Origin: Helicobacteraceae bacterium
Lineage (GTDB): Bacteria; Campylobacterota; Campylobacteria; Campylobacterales; Sulfurimonadaceae
Length of the DNA: 64,000 nucleotides
Direction: 5' to 3'
NCBI GenBank assembly: GCA_947498025.1
Contig: CANMJR010000004.1
Location: 16,708 to 80,707, forward strand
Part shown: one piece after another, positions 50,982 through 57,639 of the stretch
How positions within the stretch are numbered: position 1 is the first letter of the stretch
How the letters are laid out: each line of letters begins with the position of its first letter
Program-made: the position numbers and the translations under genes
Notes under the pieces: model-generated
What the model was told of the DNA's origin: nothing
Databases searched by the model: none
What the model saw: the letters and a program-made list of their open reading frames with translations, nothing else

Positions 50982-51627
50982 AATTTTTTTCAAAGATTTA
51001 GAGATTGAACATATCTGCAAAATTAGTTTAAAAAATAGTTACATAAGTGTTACGAAAGACGCTAAAGTAGTTTTAAAAACACCAAAAGTTTCTCAAAGAT
51101 TTATAACGGATTTGCTAACACAAAGAGAGAGTTGGATACGTGGGCATCTTTTAAAAATCGCATCCAATAAACCAGAAACGGTAAACTTGGAAGATGAACT
51201 TCTGCTTTTTGGCGATATTTATAGTATTGATATAGAAGAGGCTAAGGAGCTAAGAGAGTTACTGCTTAAACTTAGAGTGGCAAATCAAAAAAATATCCTC
51301 GGCTGCTATGATAATTTTTATAAACTTTATGCAGCAAAATACCTTATTCCACGAGTTGCGCACTTCTCTACAATTATGAATCTTGAGTACAGAGAGATAA
51401 AATTTAGAAAGATGCGAAGCAGATGGGGCAGTTGCAGCTCAAAAAAAGTTATAACACTCAATATTGAGCTGCTCAAGGTAAAAAAAGAGCTTATTGACTA
51501 TGTAATAGTTCATGAACTGGCACATTTAGTCCATATGAACCACTCAAAAAATTTCCATAATTTAGTGCAAAAATATATTACAAACTCAAAGCTGGTCAGA
51601 AAAGAGTTAAGAAGCATTCATTTATAA
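50968..51627 (+). CDS. M48/YgjP-like (DUF45) zinc metallopeptidase
   Basis: [23 protein letters not shown]. Confidence 0.88.
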
Positions 51628-51667
51628 GTGATAGTACGCATATTTACACTTTTTAAATTTGAAATTA

Positions 51668-52261
51668 TCATTTGTCCAAATCAGCTGCTTTAATAACACT
51701 ATCCTCTCGCGCTTCTATTCGACTTCCCATTTTGAACCCGATGAGTGCAATACCGGAGAGAAACAGTAAAATCAGCCATGTAGGTAGTCCCATTAATGTG
51801 CTAAGGGTTTCTCCATTTACCCCTTTCGCTGCCAAATAAAGCTCTTGCAAACTATCAAAACCGGCGGCAAATATCCAAGTACCTATCACCATTCCAATCA
51901 TAAAAAAGAGGGCATCTAATCGACCGCTGAAAAATCCGACGACGGAAGTACCGGGGCAATATCCCCCAACAGCAAGTCCAGCACCCAAGAGCGCACCACC
52001 TATAGCCATCGCCCAAAAGAATGTAGTTTGTACTCTCAACGCATCGAATCGCACCCATCCGAGAATGTCAAAGAGCCATAGTCCTACTGCCGCCACCACA
52101 ATAGCAACAAACATCACTTTAAAAACGCTCCAATCCTTAAAAGTAAACTGAGCATTGAGTTTACGAGGACTTCCAAGCCCCGATACTTCGAGAAAATAGC
52201 CGAAGAAAAAACCGCCGATGATAATCATACTACCGCTGGTGTATTCAAGAGGAAAATTCAT
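51668..52261 (-). CDS. YeeE/YedE-family sulfur-compound transporter subunit 2
   Basis: GFFFGYFLE, GGYCPGTS motif; likely start ATG 52261 overlapping upstream TGA. Confidence 0.85.
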   Translation of the reverse strand: MNFPLEYTSGSMIIIGGFFFGYFLEVSGLGSPRKLNAQFTFKDWSVFKVMFVAIVVAAVGLWLFDILGWVRFDALRVQTTFFWAMAIGGALLGAGLAVGGYCPGTSVVGFFSGRLDALFFMIGMVIGTWIFAAGFDSLQELYLAAKGVNGETLSTLMGLPTWLILLFLSGIALIGFKMGSRIEAREDSVIKAADLDK

Positions 52262-52776
52262 TGCCATATCCTTCGTGAAATAAATGAGACAACTATCCCT
52301 GCAACGAAAAATGCGATAAGAAATACAAATGCTGCCACCGACAGTGTTGCGCCGCCTGAGAGTCCGAGCCCGCTTGTGCATTCGCGTGCAAGCTGTGCTC
52401 CAAAACCAGTCAGGATTCCTCCGCCAATCGCCAGCATTAACCGGGTGATTCTTCCGATGCTTTGACCGCGTTCAATCTTGAAACGAAATCGTCTGCTCAT
52501 CAAACTCCCCGCCAATGCGCCCAAGGCTACCCCAGCAATCTCCCAGCTAATCCATGCATTCATTGGGTTACCGTCTCCCGTCATGGTGTAGAAAAAATTA
52601 TTATTTTCCGTCCATAGGGGAATCAACGTATCGCTCAGCCATGCACTCAGCCGGATAAAAAAGCCATTTGCACCGAGTCCATGTCCCGTAATAAGAAACA
52701 TGAACATAAGAGCTAAACCGAGCCCTATGCCGGCAGCTAGAGGGGACAAAAACTCTTTAGGTGTTTTATTCTTCAT
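52258..52776 (-). CDS. YeeE/YedE-family sulfur-compound transporter subunit 1
   Basis: GFGAQLARECTSG (canonical A-x-G-C-T-S-G), TM helices, RBS AAGGAG. Confidence 0.85.
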   Translation of the reverse strand: MKNKTPKEFLSPLAAGIGLGLALMFMFLITGHGLGANGFFIRLSAWLSDTLIPLWTENNNFFYTMTGDGNPMNAWISWEIAGVALGALAGSLMSRRFRFKIERGQSIGRITRLMLAIGGGILTGFGAQLARECTSGLGLSGGATLSVAAFVFLIAFFVAGIVVSFISRRIWQ

Positions 52777-52827
52777 GAACGTACTCCTTTTAATGAATGC
52801 AGATTATTATAGAAAAGAACTCTCCAC

Positions 52828-53064
52828 TTATTGAACCTTGATGAACTCTACAATAGCATCAACACTTAGAACTTTCCCAGCGCTAAGAACCTTCCCATTT
52901 ATAACGAGTGTTGGAGTGCTCATGACACCGTACTCCATGATTTTTTGGATATCTTAGACCTTTTCGATTTGAACGAACTTGCCACTTTTAGCTACTGCTT
53001 GTTTCGTTGCTTCTTCGAGGGCTTTACATTTAGCACAGCCGGTTCCTAACACTTCTATTTTCAT
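52828..53064 (-). pseudogene. MTH895-family small thioredoxin-like protein with in-frame TAA
   Basis: MKIEVLGTGCAKC...IEKV*DIQKIMEYGVMSTPTLVING...; TAA at 52956-52954, codon 37. Confidence 0.88.
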
Positions 53065-53501
53065 TTTAGCTTCTTCTTATACTCTTCCATAAAGTCTTTT
53101 GCATTGCTGCCTTTTAGGTAATCTGTCACTGATAAAAGTCCATCACTTAAGTATTTTACATTATAGCCTTTGAGCATTAAAAACATTCTAGCAATATTTG
53201 ACCTATCATTATGCGGACATGCAGTAATAATGAGTTTGGTTTTATCTAGCTCGTTTAAACGATTTGGAAGTTCATTCAGAGGTATGTTTTTAGAAAAGCT
53301 TATATGCCAAGCTTTAAATTCATCACGGAATCTTATGTCTATGACCTGAGCTGTACCGTCCTCCACCATTTTAAGCATTTCAACGGTTTTAATTTTCATC
53401 TCTTTTATTTCTTTGTAGTCAAATTTTTTTAGATAATCATCAAAACTATCTGAATACAATAAACTGCAAAACAACATCACACCTAATAATGACTTTTTCA
53501 T
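53061..53501 (-). CDS. Exported single-domain rhodanese (sulfurtransferase)
   Basis: Signal peptide, VIDIR, ACPHNDRS active-site Cys, YLSDGL. Confidence 0.85.
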   Translation of the reverse strand: MKKSLLGVMLFCSLLYSDSFDDYLKKFDYKEIKEMKIKTVEMLKMVEDGTAQVIDIRFRDEFKAWHISFSKNIPLNELPNRLNELDKTKLIITACPHNDRSNIARMFLMLKGYNVKYLSDGLLSVTDYLKGSNAKDFMEEYKKKLK

Positions 53502-53520
53502 AATACCACCTTTATCTCTT

Positions 53521-54240
53521 TTAAAAATCAGCTTTATCAAATTCTTCTTGCATTTGTTTCTCTTTAAGGGCTTTTAACTCAGCTTCAGACATCATCATAA
53601 GTGTTACTTTCTTCATAAGTAATGTTTTATTTTCAACTTTTGTCATATAGGCGTACATACCATAGGTAATCAGTAGAGTGAAAAATATAACAATAATTTT
53701 TTGTGCTGGGTTAAAAGTTTGTATTTTATCTTTGTTCCTAATTTCACAAGCACCTCCCGGGCAATTTTTAGATTTTTCTTTGTTTATAAAATTGTATATC
53801 ATACATCCAAAACAGATTGAAAATGCGGATTCACTGAAAAGAAGAACCAAACAGACGATACAAATCAGTACTTTAATCGGATTTGGAGCAAAGTTTATGA
53901 CAAGAAGATAAAACATTGGCAATGCTAACACCAAGCCTATTAACCAAGCAAATCTTTTTTGAGCCGCACCGACATATTCCGGTAGCTGGTTTCTCACAAA
54001 AAATCTTCCAATCAATAAACTAGGAGAGTAGCTTGGATTTATGACGCGTATTAAAAAATCAAAGGTAAAAAAAGTGATGAAGTATTTTGTAAAAATCACA
54101 TTGTGCAACATGACACTATTTGTTAAACTCAAAAGACCAAAAGCAAAGAGTAATCCGGCCCCAGCCCTAGCTTCACGCTCATTTACAACTCTGACATCAT
54201 AACCCTCTACTTCTTCACCATATTTAAAAAAATCTTTCAT
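53521..54240 (-). CDS. DUF4395-family membrane protein
   Basis: VNEREARAGAG, PEYVGAAQKRFAW, SICFGC, CPGGAC. Confidence 0.8.
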   Translation of the reverse strand: MKDFFKYGEEVEGYDVRVVNEREARAGAGLLFAFGLLSLTNSVMLHNVIFTKYFITFFTFDFLIRVINPSYSPSLLIGRFFVRNQLPEYVGAAQKRFAWLIGLVLALPMFYLLVINFAPNPIKVLICIVCLVLLFSESAFSICFGCMIYNFINKEKSKNCPGGACEIRNKDKIQTFNPAQKIIVIFFTLLITYGMYAYMTKVENKTLLMKKVTLMMMSEAELKALKEKQMQEEFDKADF

Positions 54241-54336
54241 TTATTCACTCTTCTCTCTTTGAGCTACCGCTTGTTTTGTTACTGCTTCAAGGGTTTTGCA
54301 CTTACTGCATCCTGTTCCTAAAATCTCGATTTTCAT
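54241..54336 (-). pseudogene. Truncated second copy of the small thioredoxin-like gene
   Basis: MKIEILGTGCSKCKTLEAVTKQAVAQREKSE*; matches the first 25 aa of the 52828-53064 copy, then ends. Confidence 0.85.
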
Positions 54337-54578
54337 AGTAAGCACTCCTTCATTAATGGCTCTAGCACTTGAGCATCTACATCGCCTGTAATCGTGATAC
54401 TTGTTCCATCATTTTCACTTGAAACTTCTATATTTTCAATCTTTTGCATGATTTGAGGGTCGCAATCACAACTACAAGAACCATTTTTACATGCCTCAAT
54501 CTTTGCAGACAGCTCCTCAGTTTTAAATCCTGTTATGAAGGCTTTCACACCTTTTTCTGTATTTGTTACTTTAAACAT
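54333..54578 (-). CDS. Small Cys-cluster protein of unknown function
   Basis: CKNGSCSCDC motif; translationally coupled within the ars operon. Confidence 0.75.
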   Translation of the reverse strand: MFKVTNTEKGVKAFITGFKTEELSAKIEACKNGSCSCDCDPQIMQKIENIEVSSENDGTSITITGDVDAQVLEPLMKECLL

Positions 54579-54581
54579 AAT

Positions 54582-54992
54582 TTAGCAAAGCTCCTTTTTT
54601 ATTATAGGTAACAACTCTATTTCTATGAGTTGCAATGTTTTTTCATACTCTTCTACTTCTTTACCGCTAGGGTCATCAAATCCTAAATGGATGGTCTTAA
54701 CGGCATGTGGAAACATTGGACATGTCTCTTTTGCATGGTCGCAAACTGTAATTATTAAATCAAATTTTGTCTCTAAAACACTCTCTATTACTTTAGAATG
54801 GTAACTTTCTCTCCAGTACCCTTTGTTTTTTAAAAGAGTCTTGGCATGTGGATTTACTGCTCCACTCGCTTTAACACCTGAACTTTGAGCTTCGACGCAA
54901 TCGCCTAATTTAGCGTTGATTAAAGCTTCTGCCATAATGGAACGGCAACTATTTCCTGTACATAAAATAAGCACCTGTTTTTTTTGACTCAT
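54582..54992 (-). CDS. arsC: Thioredoxin-coupled arsenate reductase (LMW-PTP fold)
   Basis: CTGNSCRS, TVCDHAKETCP, FDDP. Confidence 0.93.
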   Translation of the reverse strand: MSQKKQVLILCTGNSCRSIMAEALINAKLGDCVEAQSSGVKASGAVNPHAKTLLKNKGYWRESYHSKVIESVLETKFDLIITVCDHAKETCPMFPHAVKTIHLGFDDPSGKEVEEYEKTLQLIEIELLPIIKKELC

Positions 54993-55312
54993 ATTTTACA
55001 TCCTCCTGTTTCTGATGATTTTTTTAAAGGTGGAAGTTCGACTGATAAGTATCGAATCTCCTCCAAAGCTTCACTGCGGAAGCGATCAAGGGGTGCTCTG
55101 ATTGAGTAATATGCCCAAGTTCCCTTACGTTCAACGCGTAAAAAACCGGCATCTTTTAAAATCTTCAGATGACGCGAAAGACGCGATTGAATCATCTCTA
55201 AAGATGCTTGTAAATCACATACGCAACATTCGCCATTCACATCAATAAACCGCAAGATTAATACTCGGGTTTCATCATTGAGTGCTGAAATACTTTTTAA
55301 AAAAACTTCCAT
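54989..55312 (-). CDS. arsR: ArsR/SmtB As(III)-responsive repressor
   Basis: ECCVCDL alpha3 site, SRHLKILK, RKGTWAYY; likely start ATG 55312. Confidence 0.92.
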   Translation of the reverse strand: MEVFLKSISALNDETRVLILRFIDVNGECCVCDLQASLEMIQSRLSRHLKILKDAGFLRVERKGTWAYYSIRAPLDRFRSEALEEIRYLSVELPPLKKSSETGGCKI

Positions 55313-55356
55313 TTTTACCTCCATTTGAAGAAATTGTAGCATAATTAAATTACAAT

Positions 55357-55407
55357 ATCAATATATGTTGATTTATGGATTTTATTTGGATATAGTTTCA
55401 ACATATA
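55357..55407. promoter_or_regulatory. Candidate ArsR operator in divergent arsR/arsB intergenic region
   Basis: ATCAA-tatatg-TTGAT palindrome; TATATGTTGA (55362-71) / TCAACATATA (55398-407) 10-bp inverted pair. Confidence 0.6.
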
Positions 55408-55424: not shown

Positions 55425-56687
55425 ATGATTTTAGCATTGGGCGTTTTTTTAGTCACACTTGTGTTTATAATATGGCAGCCTAAAGGTTTGCAAATTGGAA
55501 CGACAGCCGTTTTCGGTGCAGTTGTGGCACTTTTAGTAGGCGTTGTAAGTTTTGCAGATGTACTCATTGTTACAGGGATTGTTTGGGATGCGACTTTGGC
55601 ATTTATCGGGATTATTCTTCTTTCAATGATTCTTGATGAGATAGGATTTTTTGAATATGCTGCAATAAAAATGGCAAAACTCAGCGGTGGTAACGGACAT
55701 AAGATGTTTGTTTACATCTTACTTTTAGGTGCGATAGTTTCTGCTTTTTTTGCAAATGACGGAGCAGCACTGATTTTAACTCCGATTGTACTGGCAAAGA
55801 TGAAATACTTAAAAATGAAACCATTAGCGATTTTCGCTTTCTTGATGGCGGGTGGTTTTATAGGCGATAGTGCTTCCAATCCGCTTGTTATTTCAAACCT
55901 CACAAACATCGTAACCATAGGCTATTTTGACATAGGTTTTGTGGAGTATGCAAAAAATATGTTTTTACCGAACTTGTTGAGCATAGTTGCTTCGGTTGCT
56001 GTGTTATGGATTTATTTTCGTAAAGATATTCCTTTTGTCATCGATGTTTCACAGCTTCCGGAAGCTTCGTCTGTTATAAAAAATAAAACAATGTTTCAGT
56101 TTTCTTGGTTCTTTTTAGCATTTTTGATGCTAGGTTATTTTATCGGCGATTATTTTCACATGCCGGTTTCTCTCTTCGCTCTTGGCGGTGCTTTGGTGTT
56201 TTTAGTCATAGCAAATCACTACAAAGCAGTCAAACCAATGATGACGATAAAAGCAGCTCCTTGGCAGGTTGTCTGGTTTAGTGTCGGGCTTTATGTTGTT
56301 GTTTATGGTCTTAAAAATGCAGGGTTAACAGATGTTATTGCCTCTTGGATTGTGGAGTTAAATAGACATGGAGCGACTGTAGCTATCATAGGAACTGGGT
56401 TCTTATCGGCGTTTATAAGTTCTGTGATGAACAACATGCCGACAATTATGATTATGGATATAGCGATTGATAAAGTGGGCTTCGTTGGACATGAAGCACT
56501 GGTTTATGCAAATATCTTAGGTTCAAACCTAGGTCCAAAAATGACACCTATCGGCTCACTCGCAACGCTTTTATGGCTCCATGTACTCGCACAAAAAGGT
56601 GTGAAAATAGGGTGGGGTGAGTACATGAAAGTAGGGCTTGTGATAACACCGCCGGTTTTACTTGTAGCACTTCTTGGATTGGTTTAG
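55425..56687 (+). CDS. arsB: Arsenite efflux pump ArsB
   Basis: VWDATLAFI, FANDGAALILTP, SNLTNIV, GPKMTPIGSLATLLW. Confidence 0.95.
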   Translation: MILALGVFLVTLVFIIWQPKGLQIGTTAVFGAVVALLVGVVSFADVLIVTGIVWDATLAFIGIILLSMILDEIGFFEYAAIKMAKLSGGNGHKMFVYILLLGAIVSAFFANDGAALILTPIVLAKMKYLKMKPLAIFAFLMAGGFIGDSASNPLVISNLTNIVTIGYFDIGFVEYAKNMFLPNLLSIVASVAVLWIYFRKDIPFVIDVSQLPEASSVIKNKTMFQFSWFFLAFLMLGYFIGDYFHMPVSLFALGGALVFLVIANHYKAVKPMMTIKAAPWQVVWFSVGLYVVVYGLKNAGLTDVIASWIVELNRHGATVAIIGTGFLSAFISSVMNNMPTIMIMDIAIDKVGFVGHEALVYANILGSNLGPKMTPIGSLATLLWLHVLAQKGVKIGWGEYMKVGLVITPPVLLVALLGLV

Positions 56688-56742: not shown

Positions 56743-57639
56743 ATGTCCGAACATCACCACCATCACCATGTAAGCGGTAAAAATTTATTTATTACAATTA
56801 TTTTAAATAGTATTATTACTATTGCCCAGATTATTGGAGGTATTGTCTCCGGTTCACTAGCGCTTCTTAGCGATGCCATGCACAATTTCAGTGATGTACT
56901 TTCTTTGGTCATTGCTTACGGTGCAAATAGAATCTCAAGCAAACCGAGTAATGCTGAGAAAACTTTTGGTTATCATAGAGCAGAGATATTGGCGGCACTT
57001 TTTAACTCCTCCGTTTTAATTGGTATCTCTCTTTATTTGATTATTGAAGCATGTAGCAAACTTTATCATCCGGAGCCTATAGATTCGACATGGGTTATTG
57101 CACTTGGAGCTTTAGGGATTGTCGTAAATGCACTCAGTGTTTGGATGGTTAAAGAAGATGCCGAAGAAAATATGAATCTGCAAGCTGCCTATTTGCATCT
57201 TTTAGCGGATGTTATGACATCTATCGCCGTTGTTATAGGCGGTGTGCTCATGTATTATTTTCATATTTTTTGGATTGACCCTATTATCTCTATTTTAATA
57301 GCTTTGTATCTTCTTTGGGCTTCCTTTGGATTAGTAAAAGATGCAACTTTTGTGTTGATGCAGTTTGTACCAAAAGGTATAGAACTAAGTGAAGTTGTAA
57401 AAACGATAACTGCCCTACCTCAAATTGAGAATGCTCATCATATACATTTATGGCAGTTAGATGACCATCGCATCCATCTTGAAGCACACCTTGATTTTAA
57501 TGAAAATATTACAATTGAAGCTTCAAATCAAATCATTAATATACTTGAAAAAGAGCTAAGAGAGCTGTTTAAAATATCACATGTTACATTTCAATGTGAA
57601 TATAATCGATGTGATAATAAAGAGGTTATCAAACTTTAG
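56743..57639 (+). CDS. czcD: CDF-family divalent metal efflux transporter (CzcD-like)
   Basis: His-rich N-terminus, SDAMHNFSD, TFGYHRAE, HLLADV, HIHLWQ. Confidence 0.9.
   Translation: MSEHHHHHHVSGKNLFITIILNSIITIAQIIGGIVSGSLALLSDAMHNFSDVLSLVIAYGANRISSKPSNAEKTFGYHRAEILAALFNSSVLIGISLYLIIEACSKLYHPEPIDSTWVIALGALGIVVNALSVWMVKEDAEENMNLQAAYLHLLADVMTSIAVVIGGVLMYYFHIFWIDPIISILIALYLLWASFGLVKDATFVLMQFVPKGIELSEVVKTITALPQIENAHHIHLWQLDDHRIHLEAHLDFNENITIEASNQIINILEKELRELFKISHVTFQCEYNRCDNKEVIKL

Follow-up and report, generated by a model that had tools for sequence, protein, structure and literature searches.

Gene order and control region of the arsenic locus

The window, meaning the whole stretch of 64,000 nucleotides taken from contig CANMJR010000004.1 of the Helicobacteraceae bacterium assembly GCA_947498025.1, contains an arsenic resistance (ars) locus in which nine tightly packed open reading frames (ORFs) on the minus strand, spanning 51668-55342, diverge from arsB. 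The source genome (2.93 Mb, 36% GC, 99.8% complete, soxYZ present) is of the Sulfurimonas type. Judged by its gene content and arrangement, the locus is an ArsR-controlled ars operon whose arsC is of the thioredoxin type, as arsC overlaps arsR by 4 nt and arsB shares the divergent control region. The gene for the regulator (arsR, 54989-55312, minus strand, with a longer ORF starting at 55342) matches Pfam HTH_5 (2.4e-13). It is followed by arsC (54582-54992, minus strand; Pfam LMWPc, 1.3e-20), which encodes an LMW-PTP-type, thioredoxin-coupled reductase that carries the Cys motifs CTGNSCRS, VCD and TCP; among NCBIfam models it matches arsenate reductase (thioredoxin) best, without reaching the equivalog cut-off. 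On the plus strand, 112 bp from arsR, arsB (55425-56687) encodes an arsenite efflux permease (PF02040, 2.3e-143, 479 bits; NCBIfam ArsB, 612 bits against a cut-off of 457).

Seven further ORFs follow arsC on the minus strand, two of them halves of one channel and two of them thioredoxin remnants. The first encodes an 81-aa Cys-rich protein (54333-54578) that has no Pfam or NCBIfam match and is called CysRich81 or the tri-Cys protein below. The next, trx' (54241-54336), is a 31-aa N-terminal stub, in translation MKIEILGTGCSKCK..., of the ArsE/Thioredoxin_3 type and abuts the start of a gene for a 239-aa DUF4395 membrane protein (53521-54240; PF14340, 6.7e-25). An exported, single-domain rhodanese (53061-53501; PF00581, 1.3e-14) and a full-length ArsE/Thioredoxin_3 gene interrupted by TAA at codon 37 (52828-53064, with the stop at 52954-52956) come next. 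A 51-nt spacer (52777-52827, minus strand) then leads to a YeeE/YedE pair made of half A (52258-52776, 172 aa; Sulf_transp PF04143, 1.7e-16) and half B (51668-52261, 197 aa, as in the gene call of the relative L034; PF04143, 3e-14, plus DUF6691). From arsR to DUF4395 the junctions are a 4-nt overlap, a 3-nt gap, an ATGA overlap and a 0-nt gap; from DUF4395 to half B they are a 19-nt gap, an ATGA overlap, a 51-nt gap and an ATGA overlap.

An earlier, sequence-only reading of this DNA had described arsR through the interrupted thioredoxin gene as lying on one strand with overlapping or nearly abutting junctions, and all the genes it named are located here in that arrangement. It had also placed a YeeE/YedE pair behind them; the pair is present, but its second half runs beyond the boundary then given, to 51668. 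The unit itself needs two amendments, since the divergent arsB belongs to it and both thioredoxin copies are defective.

The best-scoring promoter-like site between 51400 and 55600, and the only strong one, is TTGATA-17-TACAAT with a TG extension (55333-55361, minus strand; 10 of 12 positions match) upstream of arsR. An imperfect 16-bp palindrome, ATCAACATATATTGAT, at 55357-55372 overlaps the -35 box of this promoter and is a candidate ArsR operator. No further copy of it was found within the operon, and it is kept, with one central change, at a second arsR copy on contig C11 of the same genome. Terminator-like hairpins in the operon region are no more numerous than the shuffled expectation, and an Rfam search returned no RNA element.

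ArsR carries the motif GECCVCDL in alpha3, with three Cys arranged as CCVC, and one more Cys near the C-terminus. The protein passes the NCBIfam metalloregulator ArsR/SmtB model (83 bits, cut-off 55) and fails the BigR model NF040642 (27.4 bits, cut-off 155), a score on which a BigR-type sensor is rejected. The CCVC motif and this low score support the initial description of the regulator. The alpha3 motif aligns with ELCVCD of Lmo1102, and the CVCD shared with this CadC-type sensor could be taken to favour a different operon altogether, one for thiophile or reactive-sulfur stress. Its regulator would sense a signal other than As(III), for instance persulfide, Sb or Cd, its DUF4395, tri-Cys and rhodanese proteins would handle reactive sulfur or soft metals, and arsC and arsB would be passengers. 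Several features make such an operon very improbable. The regulator has three alpha3 Cys and no N-terminal Cys pair, its BigR score is far too low, and it shares its divergent promoter with arsB and overlaps arsC; furthermore, the operon contains neither soft-metal pump genes nor a persulfide dioxygenase gene.

Two observations touch the core genes and their surroundings. The second arsR copy belongs to an arsR-arsC-CysRich81 module (C11:13106-14085) that is 89% identical in nucleotides to the window copy, with the identity beginning 45 bp before arsR and ending exactly at the stop of the Cys-rich gene; no further genes of the series lie behind it, and two large ORFs of 767 and 842 aa, both without annotation, follow convergently. 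In the window, the gene next after arsB encodes a CDF pump (56743-57639) with a tag-like N-terminal His run, MSEHHHHHH, and its stop codon directly adjoins that of a NifA-like sigma-54 activator gene running towards it.

Related loci and the mosaic structure of the window copy

The sequence-only reading had interpreted the locus as an As-inducible sulfur-transfer module, which finds support in part, and had allowed that it could be a chance fusion of two operons or a linkage unique to this strain. Neither of these last two applies. Three relatives, a Lake Pavin metagenome-assembled genome, which is the closest syntenic relative of the window, and two read assemblies (L033, L034 and L035), are collinear with it at about 92% nucleotide identity from CysRich81 to PBP2. 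The collinear stretch takes in the Cys-rich gene, trx', DUF4395, rhodanese, thioredoxin, both yeeE halves and the flanking housekeeping genes. In a second lineage (L133), arsB diverges from arsR-arsC-arsP-CysRich-rhodanese-trx-yeeE-yedE, without DUF4395, at another chromosomal site beside minCDE, and at this same minCDE site a further relative (L036) carries arsR-arsC-arsP-DUF4395-CysRich-trx. The collinear relatives and the second lineage together rule out a chance fusion. More broadly, the linkage is greater than chance would give, because the whole arrangement recurs, the rhodanese is ars-linked across the order and DUF4395 orthologs are ars-linked as well; orthologs of both recur in ars clusters of many Campylobacterales. 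All linkage counts given here are lower bounds because many contigs are short.

Read from these gene orders, the extended design consists of the ars core together with the tri-Cys protein, an ArsE-type thioredoxin, DUF4395 and the exported rhodanese, with YeeE/YedE present in the window lineage and one other. Because the same combinations recur in related genomes, the exported rhodanese, DUF4395, the tri-Cys protein and the YeeE/YedE pair probably belong to arsenic handling.

The window copy of this design is, by comparison with its relatives, a mosaic and partly decayed, having lost arsP at a recombination breakpoint and having both ArsE-type thioredoxins broken. In the three collinear relatives arsP lies between arsC and the Cys-rich gene. 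Against L033 (4233-5890), the Cys-rich gene of the window is 98.8% identical while arsC is only 84% identical (window 54578-54992), and synonymous divergence (dS) is 0.79 for arsC and 0.06-0.26 for the genes downstream. This jump in identity and dS places a recombination breakpoint between arsC and CysRich81, exactly at the arsP site of L033. The stub trx' is the same 31-aa remnant in L033 and L034 and likely arose by rearrangement, since it matches the CysRich81-trx pair that is intact in L036. A recent duplication around an insertion was considered as the origin of the two thioredoxin copies and is ruled out, as they share only about 77% identity over 80 nt.

In the interrupted copy, the relatives have GAA in place of the TAA at codon 37 and their thioredoxin is intact; the L033 homolog scores 108 bits against TIGR00412 (MTH895/ArsE; cut-off 62). 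The TAA may be an assembly error. As the sequence stands, the window holds no intact ArsE of about 77 aa with a CxxC motif, and the rest of the genome contains neither an arsP ortholog nor another Thioredoxin_3 gene. That ArsP and both ArsE copies are gone together fits a working pair of ArsP and ArsE, and this co-loss amounts to natural evidence that ArsE works with ArsP. One arsenic-induced operon pairs ArsE with ArsP (bioRxiv 10.1101/2022.10.17.512643), and thioredoxins of the MTH895/ArsE type, CcdA and thioredoxin are already listed as ars determinants (PMC2963123). On this point the initial interpretation is corrected, the trx genes being of a kind already known from ars operons.

In spite of the decay, the accessory genes CysRich81, DUF4395 and both yeeE halves are under purifying selection, with dN/dS values against L033 of 0-0.18. 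The rhodanese is left out of this comparison, as its length differs from that of the L033 gene; its ORF is intact.

The yeeE pair has a history of its own. GC content at third codon positions (GC3) is 0.38-0.46 in the interrupted thioredoxin gene and the yeeE pair (0.39-0.46 in the pair by itself, with 0.46 in half A) against 0.27-0.31 from arsR through the rhodanese, and the nearest YeeE relatives outside the genus, about 67% identical, are those of betaproteobacterial sulfur oxidisers. The 51-nt spacer contains TATAAT (52811-52806) and a leader, CATTCATTAAAAGGAGTACG, that together form a candidate internal promoter; both are conserved in L033 and L133 and in part before a stand-alone yeeE/yedE pair of Ca. 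Sulfurimonas marisnigri (L132:6001-8418). This pair is 80% identical, has the same leader and adjoins an IS3-type transposase gene, which fits mobility of the cassette. The foreign GC3, the betaproteobacterial relatives and the shared TATAAT and leader mark the pair as an acquired cassette whose promoter probably came with it. In Sulfurimonas sp. CS5 (L055), a CDF gene accompanies the yeeE pair.

These same features (foreign GC3 in the interrupted thioredoxin gene and both halves, closest homologs in betaproteobacterial sulfur oxidisers, and the TATAAT and leader found again before a solitary pair next to a transposase), together with the breakpoint between arsC and CysRich81 in a mosaic copy, would also suit a mere juxtaposition, in which yeeE/yedE, perhaps with rhodanese-trx, is a sulfur cassette with its own promoter kept by chance or hitch-hiking behind an ars operon in one species cluster. 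However, the same block stands behind ars genes at two distinct chromosomal locations, with no terminator between it and the genes upstream. In five families of the order the rhodanese is found with ars genes, and both yeeE halves are under purifying selection. These points leave a mere juxtaposition decidedly unlikely.

Accessory proteins of the extended design

The exported rhodanese is found with ars genes across Campylobacterales. It passes PF00581 (54.8 bits, threshold 22.2) and has a signal peptide and a single Cys in the mature protein. Its active-site loop, ACPHNDR, contains CPHNDR, a six-residue CX4R loop. Short CX4R loops mark the sulfur/selenium type and CX5R loops the Acr2 type (as quoted in PMC5525254), so that an Acr2/Cdc25-type arsenate reductase with its seven-residue CX5R loop is ruled out. 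The best structural alignment is to the rhodanese domain of CoADR-rhodanese (3icr), with the catalytic Cys in register; the match to a persulfide reductase (3nta) is weaker.

Orthologs defined at E < 1e-45 occur in 16 genomes, and in 9 of these they lie within 3 kb of arsC, with one more beside arsP (10/16 in total). The ars- or arsP-linked orthologs span five families of Campylobacterales, four of them besides the family of the window. All ars-linked copies keep the signal peptide and an ACPH(N/K)DR loop; signal-less tandem copies with CPHYDR are not ars-linked. The gene orders vary, from arsR-arsC-arsP-CysRich-trx-rhodanese (G043 and G031) and arsC-arsP-CysRich-trx-CcdA-exported Trx-rhodanese (G023) to arsR-arsB-arsC-CysRich-rhodanese (G035) and a rhodanese downstream of arsB (G012). 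Most genomes with an ars-linked rhodanese lack a YeeE/YedE partner for it, and therefore its role cannot depend on the channel.

Some ars operons of relatives (L014:7723-8787 of genome G025, L045 and L048) contain CcdA (DsbD_TM) and an exported thioredoxin, located between ArsE and DUF4395 or adjoining the rhodanese, which suggests a periplasmic reducing branch within those operons. Insertions were also seen in arsP-rhodanese-arsE clusters of other families, a GGDEF protein gene (L040:7425-8858, genome G058) and a CorA-like protein gene (L041:2414-3364, genome G037).

Arsenic stress raises the demand for sulfur, and the rhodanese and the channel could serve this demand. In that case the accessory genes would have no action on arsenic itself; arsenite would deplete thiols, the exported rhodanese would feed the YeeE/YedE channel for import of thiosulfate or sulfane sulfur, and the thiol-redox proteins would rebuild cysteine and low-molecular-weight thiols. 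The short, sulfur-type loop of the rhodanese agrees with this, as do the match of both yeeE halves to Sulf_transp, a family that includes the thiosulfate importer TsuA, and the fact that rhodanese-trx-yeeE-yedE travels as a block in two lineages. On the other hand, the rhodanese is mostly ars-linked without a channel. The two halves belong to PF04143 but fall well short of the equivalog thresholds for TsuA and YedE (scores of 35 bits against 400 and of 21 against 645), and no TusA-like ORF was found in 51600-55400, leaving the operon without a TusA/TsuB-like acceptor. Sulfur supply would also leave the DUF4395 and tri-Cys genes of minimal ars operons unexplained. Overall, we place this explanation on the unlikely side.

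The tri-Cys protein has an invariant motif, C30-x2-G-x-C35-x-C37-x2-D40, and the pattern C-x2-G-x-C-x-C-x2-D is common to two subfamilies, CysRich81 and relatives of 84-87 aa. Relatives occur in arsP-CysRich-trx clusters and directly upstream of DUF4395. The AlphaFold2 (AF2) model is a small alpha/beta fold with a predicted local distance difference test score (pLDDT) of 85, and a fold search against the PDB returned only generic alpha/beta folds and de novo ferredoxin-like folds. On the basis of its invariant motif and its neighbours, CysRich81 is a candidate As(III)-binding protein.

DUF4395 passes PF14340 (88.3 bits, gathering score 24.5), and the database proteins closest to it carry the annotation Sulfurimonas or Campylobacterales. 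Six of its Cys are near-invariant (C127xxC130, C143xGC146 and C160PGGxC165), as is E137, and the Cys are common to 53 diverse members. Its AF2 model is confident (pLDDT 92.7), a PDB fold search gave no match (best E 0.76), and the domain fusions of long relatives were uninformative. The positive-inside rule would place the N-terminus, the 68-96 loop and the Cys-rich segment 147-178 on the cytoplasmic side.

The genomic company of DUF4395 was surveyed in 80 species-representative loci reaching up to 8 kb to each side, 44 of them ortholog-like (at least 54% identity) and 36 paralog-like. Genes for arsenic resistance are found in 14 of the 44 ortholog-like loci and the tri-Cys gene in 11, directly upstream in 5; in the paralog-like loci the tri-Cys gene is absent (0/36), ars-like genes occur in 3/36, and about 10 loci adjoin sox and housekeeping genes. 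Minimal operons include arsI-arsR-arsC-DUF4395 with a divergent arsB, and arsC-CysRich-DUF4395. Within the clade, minimal arsR-arsC-DUF4395 and arsB-DUF4395 operons have no sulfur genes, and in distant bacteria (L038 and L126) DUF4395 lies within or adjoining ars gene clusters. Because minimal ars operons without sulfur genes hold it, DUF4395 behaves as an arsenic-linked gene and not as the sulfur-trafficking gene of the initial proposal. Such contexts suggest that both DUF4395 and the tri-Cys protein serve in arsenic handling rather than as carriers of sulfur.

Many DUF4395 orthologs follow an RND pump gene or precede a CDF pump gene. This pump neighbourhood speaks for the thiophile stress operon considered above for the regulator, as does the DUF4395 paralog of the same genome, whose KCG-repeat tail stands beside an exported KCG-repeat ORF. 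The paralog (C14:26382-27330, 58% identity) ends in SKCETGKCETGKCGSAK and follows an exported 81-aa KCG-repeat ORF that resembles precursors of metal-binding ribosomally synthesised and post-translationally modified peptides (HvfA/bufferin type); a GMC-type oxidoreductase gene adjoins it. Also beside DUF4395 and RND pump genes is a protein of about 100 aa with the pattern M.NEACH.M.EGEILN...KDPTL.LDG and a weak Thioredoxin_3 match (L028:5132-5437 and L015:6697-7008), which in L050 is fused to a rhodanese as the N-terminal part of its ORF.

Proposed mechanism and comparison with known systems

Taken together, we consider it fairly probable that the locus is one ArsR-controlled ars operon, a mosaic and partly decayed copy of an extended ars design found repeatedly in Campylobacterales, and that it works as follows. 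As(III) would bind the CCVC site of ArsR and release the repressor from the palindrome over the -35 box, leading to de-repression. ArsC would then reduce arsenate and ArsB export arsenite. The tri-Cys protein may bind As(III) through three thiolates and form with DUF4395 a chaperone plus thiol-relay pair, in which the Cys of DUF4395 would form a path between the middle of the membrane and its cytoplasmic side. The rhodanese, in the periplasm, could move sulfane sulfur from thiosulfate or polysulfide onto exported arsenic species and so yield thioarsenate. An exported arsenical is the most economical target for this enzyme, because the rhodanese is usually found together with ArsP or ArsB and does without a YeeE partner. 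In relatives, CcdA and the exported thioredoxin would keep its single Cys reduced. The YeeE/YedE channel, finally, would move thiosulfate or the isostructural monothioarsenate, an analogy that has been noted before (PMC6620896).

Several points weigh against this account. Arsenite induction and co-transcription of the operon are predictions, and the yeeE pair, whose GC3 is foreign and which is preceded by a conserved -10-like box and leader, may be transcribed independently and expressed on its own. About two thirds of the DUF4395 ortholog loci have no ars gene and many adjoin RND or CDF pumps, and the closest ortholog from beyond the species cluster, which is 76% identical and belongs to G019, is a solitary gene. 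The topology of DUF4395, and with it the idea of a Cys relay, follows only from the positive-inside rule and AF2 secondary structure. Lastly, a literature search found no paper on, and no biochemical link of, a rhodanese to arsenite.

A bolder version is that the locus holds two undescribed arsenic systems at once, a tri-Cys/DUF4395 As(III) chaperone-relay and a rhodanese/YeeE route for the formation and transport of thioarsenicals. This is conceivable, but as a joint claim it is unlikely. In it, the rhodanese would sulfurate exported arsenite or methylarsenite to thioarsenicals and YeeE/YedE would carry the thiosulfate-like monothioarsenate. If true, the rhodanese route would provide genetic determinants for thioarsenate formation or resistance for the first time, and the tri-Cys/DUF4395 pair would be analogous to MerP/MerT or ArsD/ArsA and unrelated to them.

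Thioarsenates dominate arsenic speciation in sulfidic waters. Mechanisms of thioarsenate resistance should exist and are yet to be verified, according to a 2018 review (PMC6205960). The extended design offers concrete candidates for thioarsenate handling, namely the ars-linked exported rhodanese family, the tri-Cys protein and DUF4395, the last with a confident six-Cys membrane model and no solved relative. Even on a modest reading, three recurrent accessory gene families are added to the ars repertoire of sulfur-oxidising Campylobacterota.

What is already known is the ordinary ars core and the ArsE, CcdA and thioredoxin accessories. In the literature searched, neither an exported rhodanese nor DUF4395, the tri-Cys protein or YeeE/YedE is described as a member of an ars operon, and the two papers that mention DUF4395 do not connect it with arsenic. 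The nearest case there is an arsenite-induced rhodanese operon beside the Thioalkalivibrio ars cluster, beyond which no ars-linked rhodanese with YeeE was found tied to arsenic. Published ArsE-type ars operons share with the window an ArsR-controlled arsC and a Thioredoxin_3/ArsE gene, and with its relatives also arsP, CcdA and an exported thioredoxin. Their descriptions lack the rhodanese, DUF4395, tri-Cys protein and YeeE/YedE, whereas the window lacks arsP and has both ArsE copies broken. Within the same phylum, Campylobacter jejuni reportedly has an operon arsP-arsR-arsC-acr3, with an ArsR repressor, an ArsC of the LMW-PTP type and an ArsP permease as in the versions of the window's relatives; the window differs in having a divergent ArsB instead of Acr3 and four to six extra genes of thiol or sulfur type.

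Single components also have counterparts elsewhere. The yeeE halves share the Sulf_transp fold and a conserved Cys in each half with TsuA(YeeE)-TsuB(YeeD) and SoxT (PMC11582611), but the window channel is split into two genes, has no TusA-like partner and scores far below the family-specific models. PspE of E. coli and Sud of Wolinella are periplasmic rhodaneses. Like them, the window protein is exported and single-domain, with one catalytic Cys and a short sulfur-type loop; it differs in that the similarity is weak (PspE 21.7 bits against a cut-off of 102) and in its distinct CPHNDR loop, which is kept in the ars-linked orthologs. As a functional analogy only, the tri-Cys/DUF4395 pair recalls MerP/MerT and ArsD in that a small soluble Cys protein accompanies a membrane protein whose Cys pairs lie within a helix and on the cytoplasmic side, and its three thiolates recall the As(III) sites of ArsD and ArsR. 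The PDB fold searches gave no relation to these proteins, with no match for DUF4395 and generic ones only for the tri-Cys protein, and they are set apart on this ground and not by direct comparison.

At the level of the whole operon, two systems come closest. In the bigR-blh operons of Xylella and Agrobacterium, and with other ArsR-family persulfide sensors, an ArsR-family repressor stands before genes for rhodanese-domain and YeeE/YedE-type membrane proteins, as it does in the window. Here, however, the Cys of the regulator lie in alpha3 (CCVC), with one near the C-terminus, and, judged by eye, do not appear to form the alpha2/alpha5 pair of BigR/SqrR; the locus has arsC and arsB and no persulfide dioxygenase gene. 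In Synechocystis, the ArsR-like SuoR controls a sulfide:quinone oxidoreductase and an arsenite transporter through suoR-suoS and suoC-suoT (PMC4307280, PMC6620896). The sulfur enzyme there is a sulfide:quinone oxidoreductase of the cytoplasmic membrane and here an exported rhodanese with YeeE/YedE, and the accessory genes are non-homologous. Nevertheless, in both organisms an ArsR-type repressor would couple arsenic handling to a sulfur enzyme, and in Synechocystis thioarsenate has been proposed as the link.

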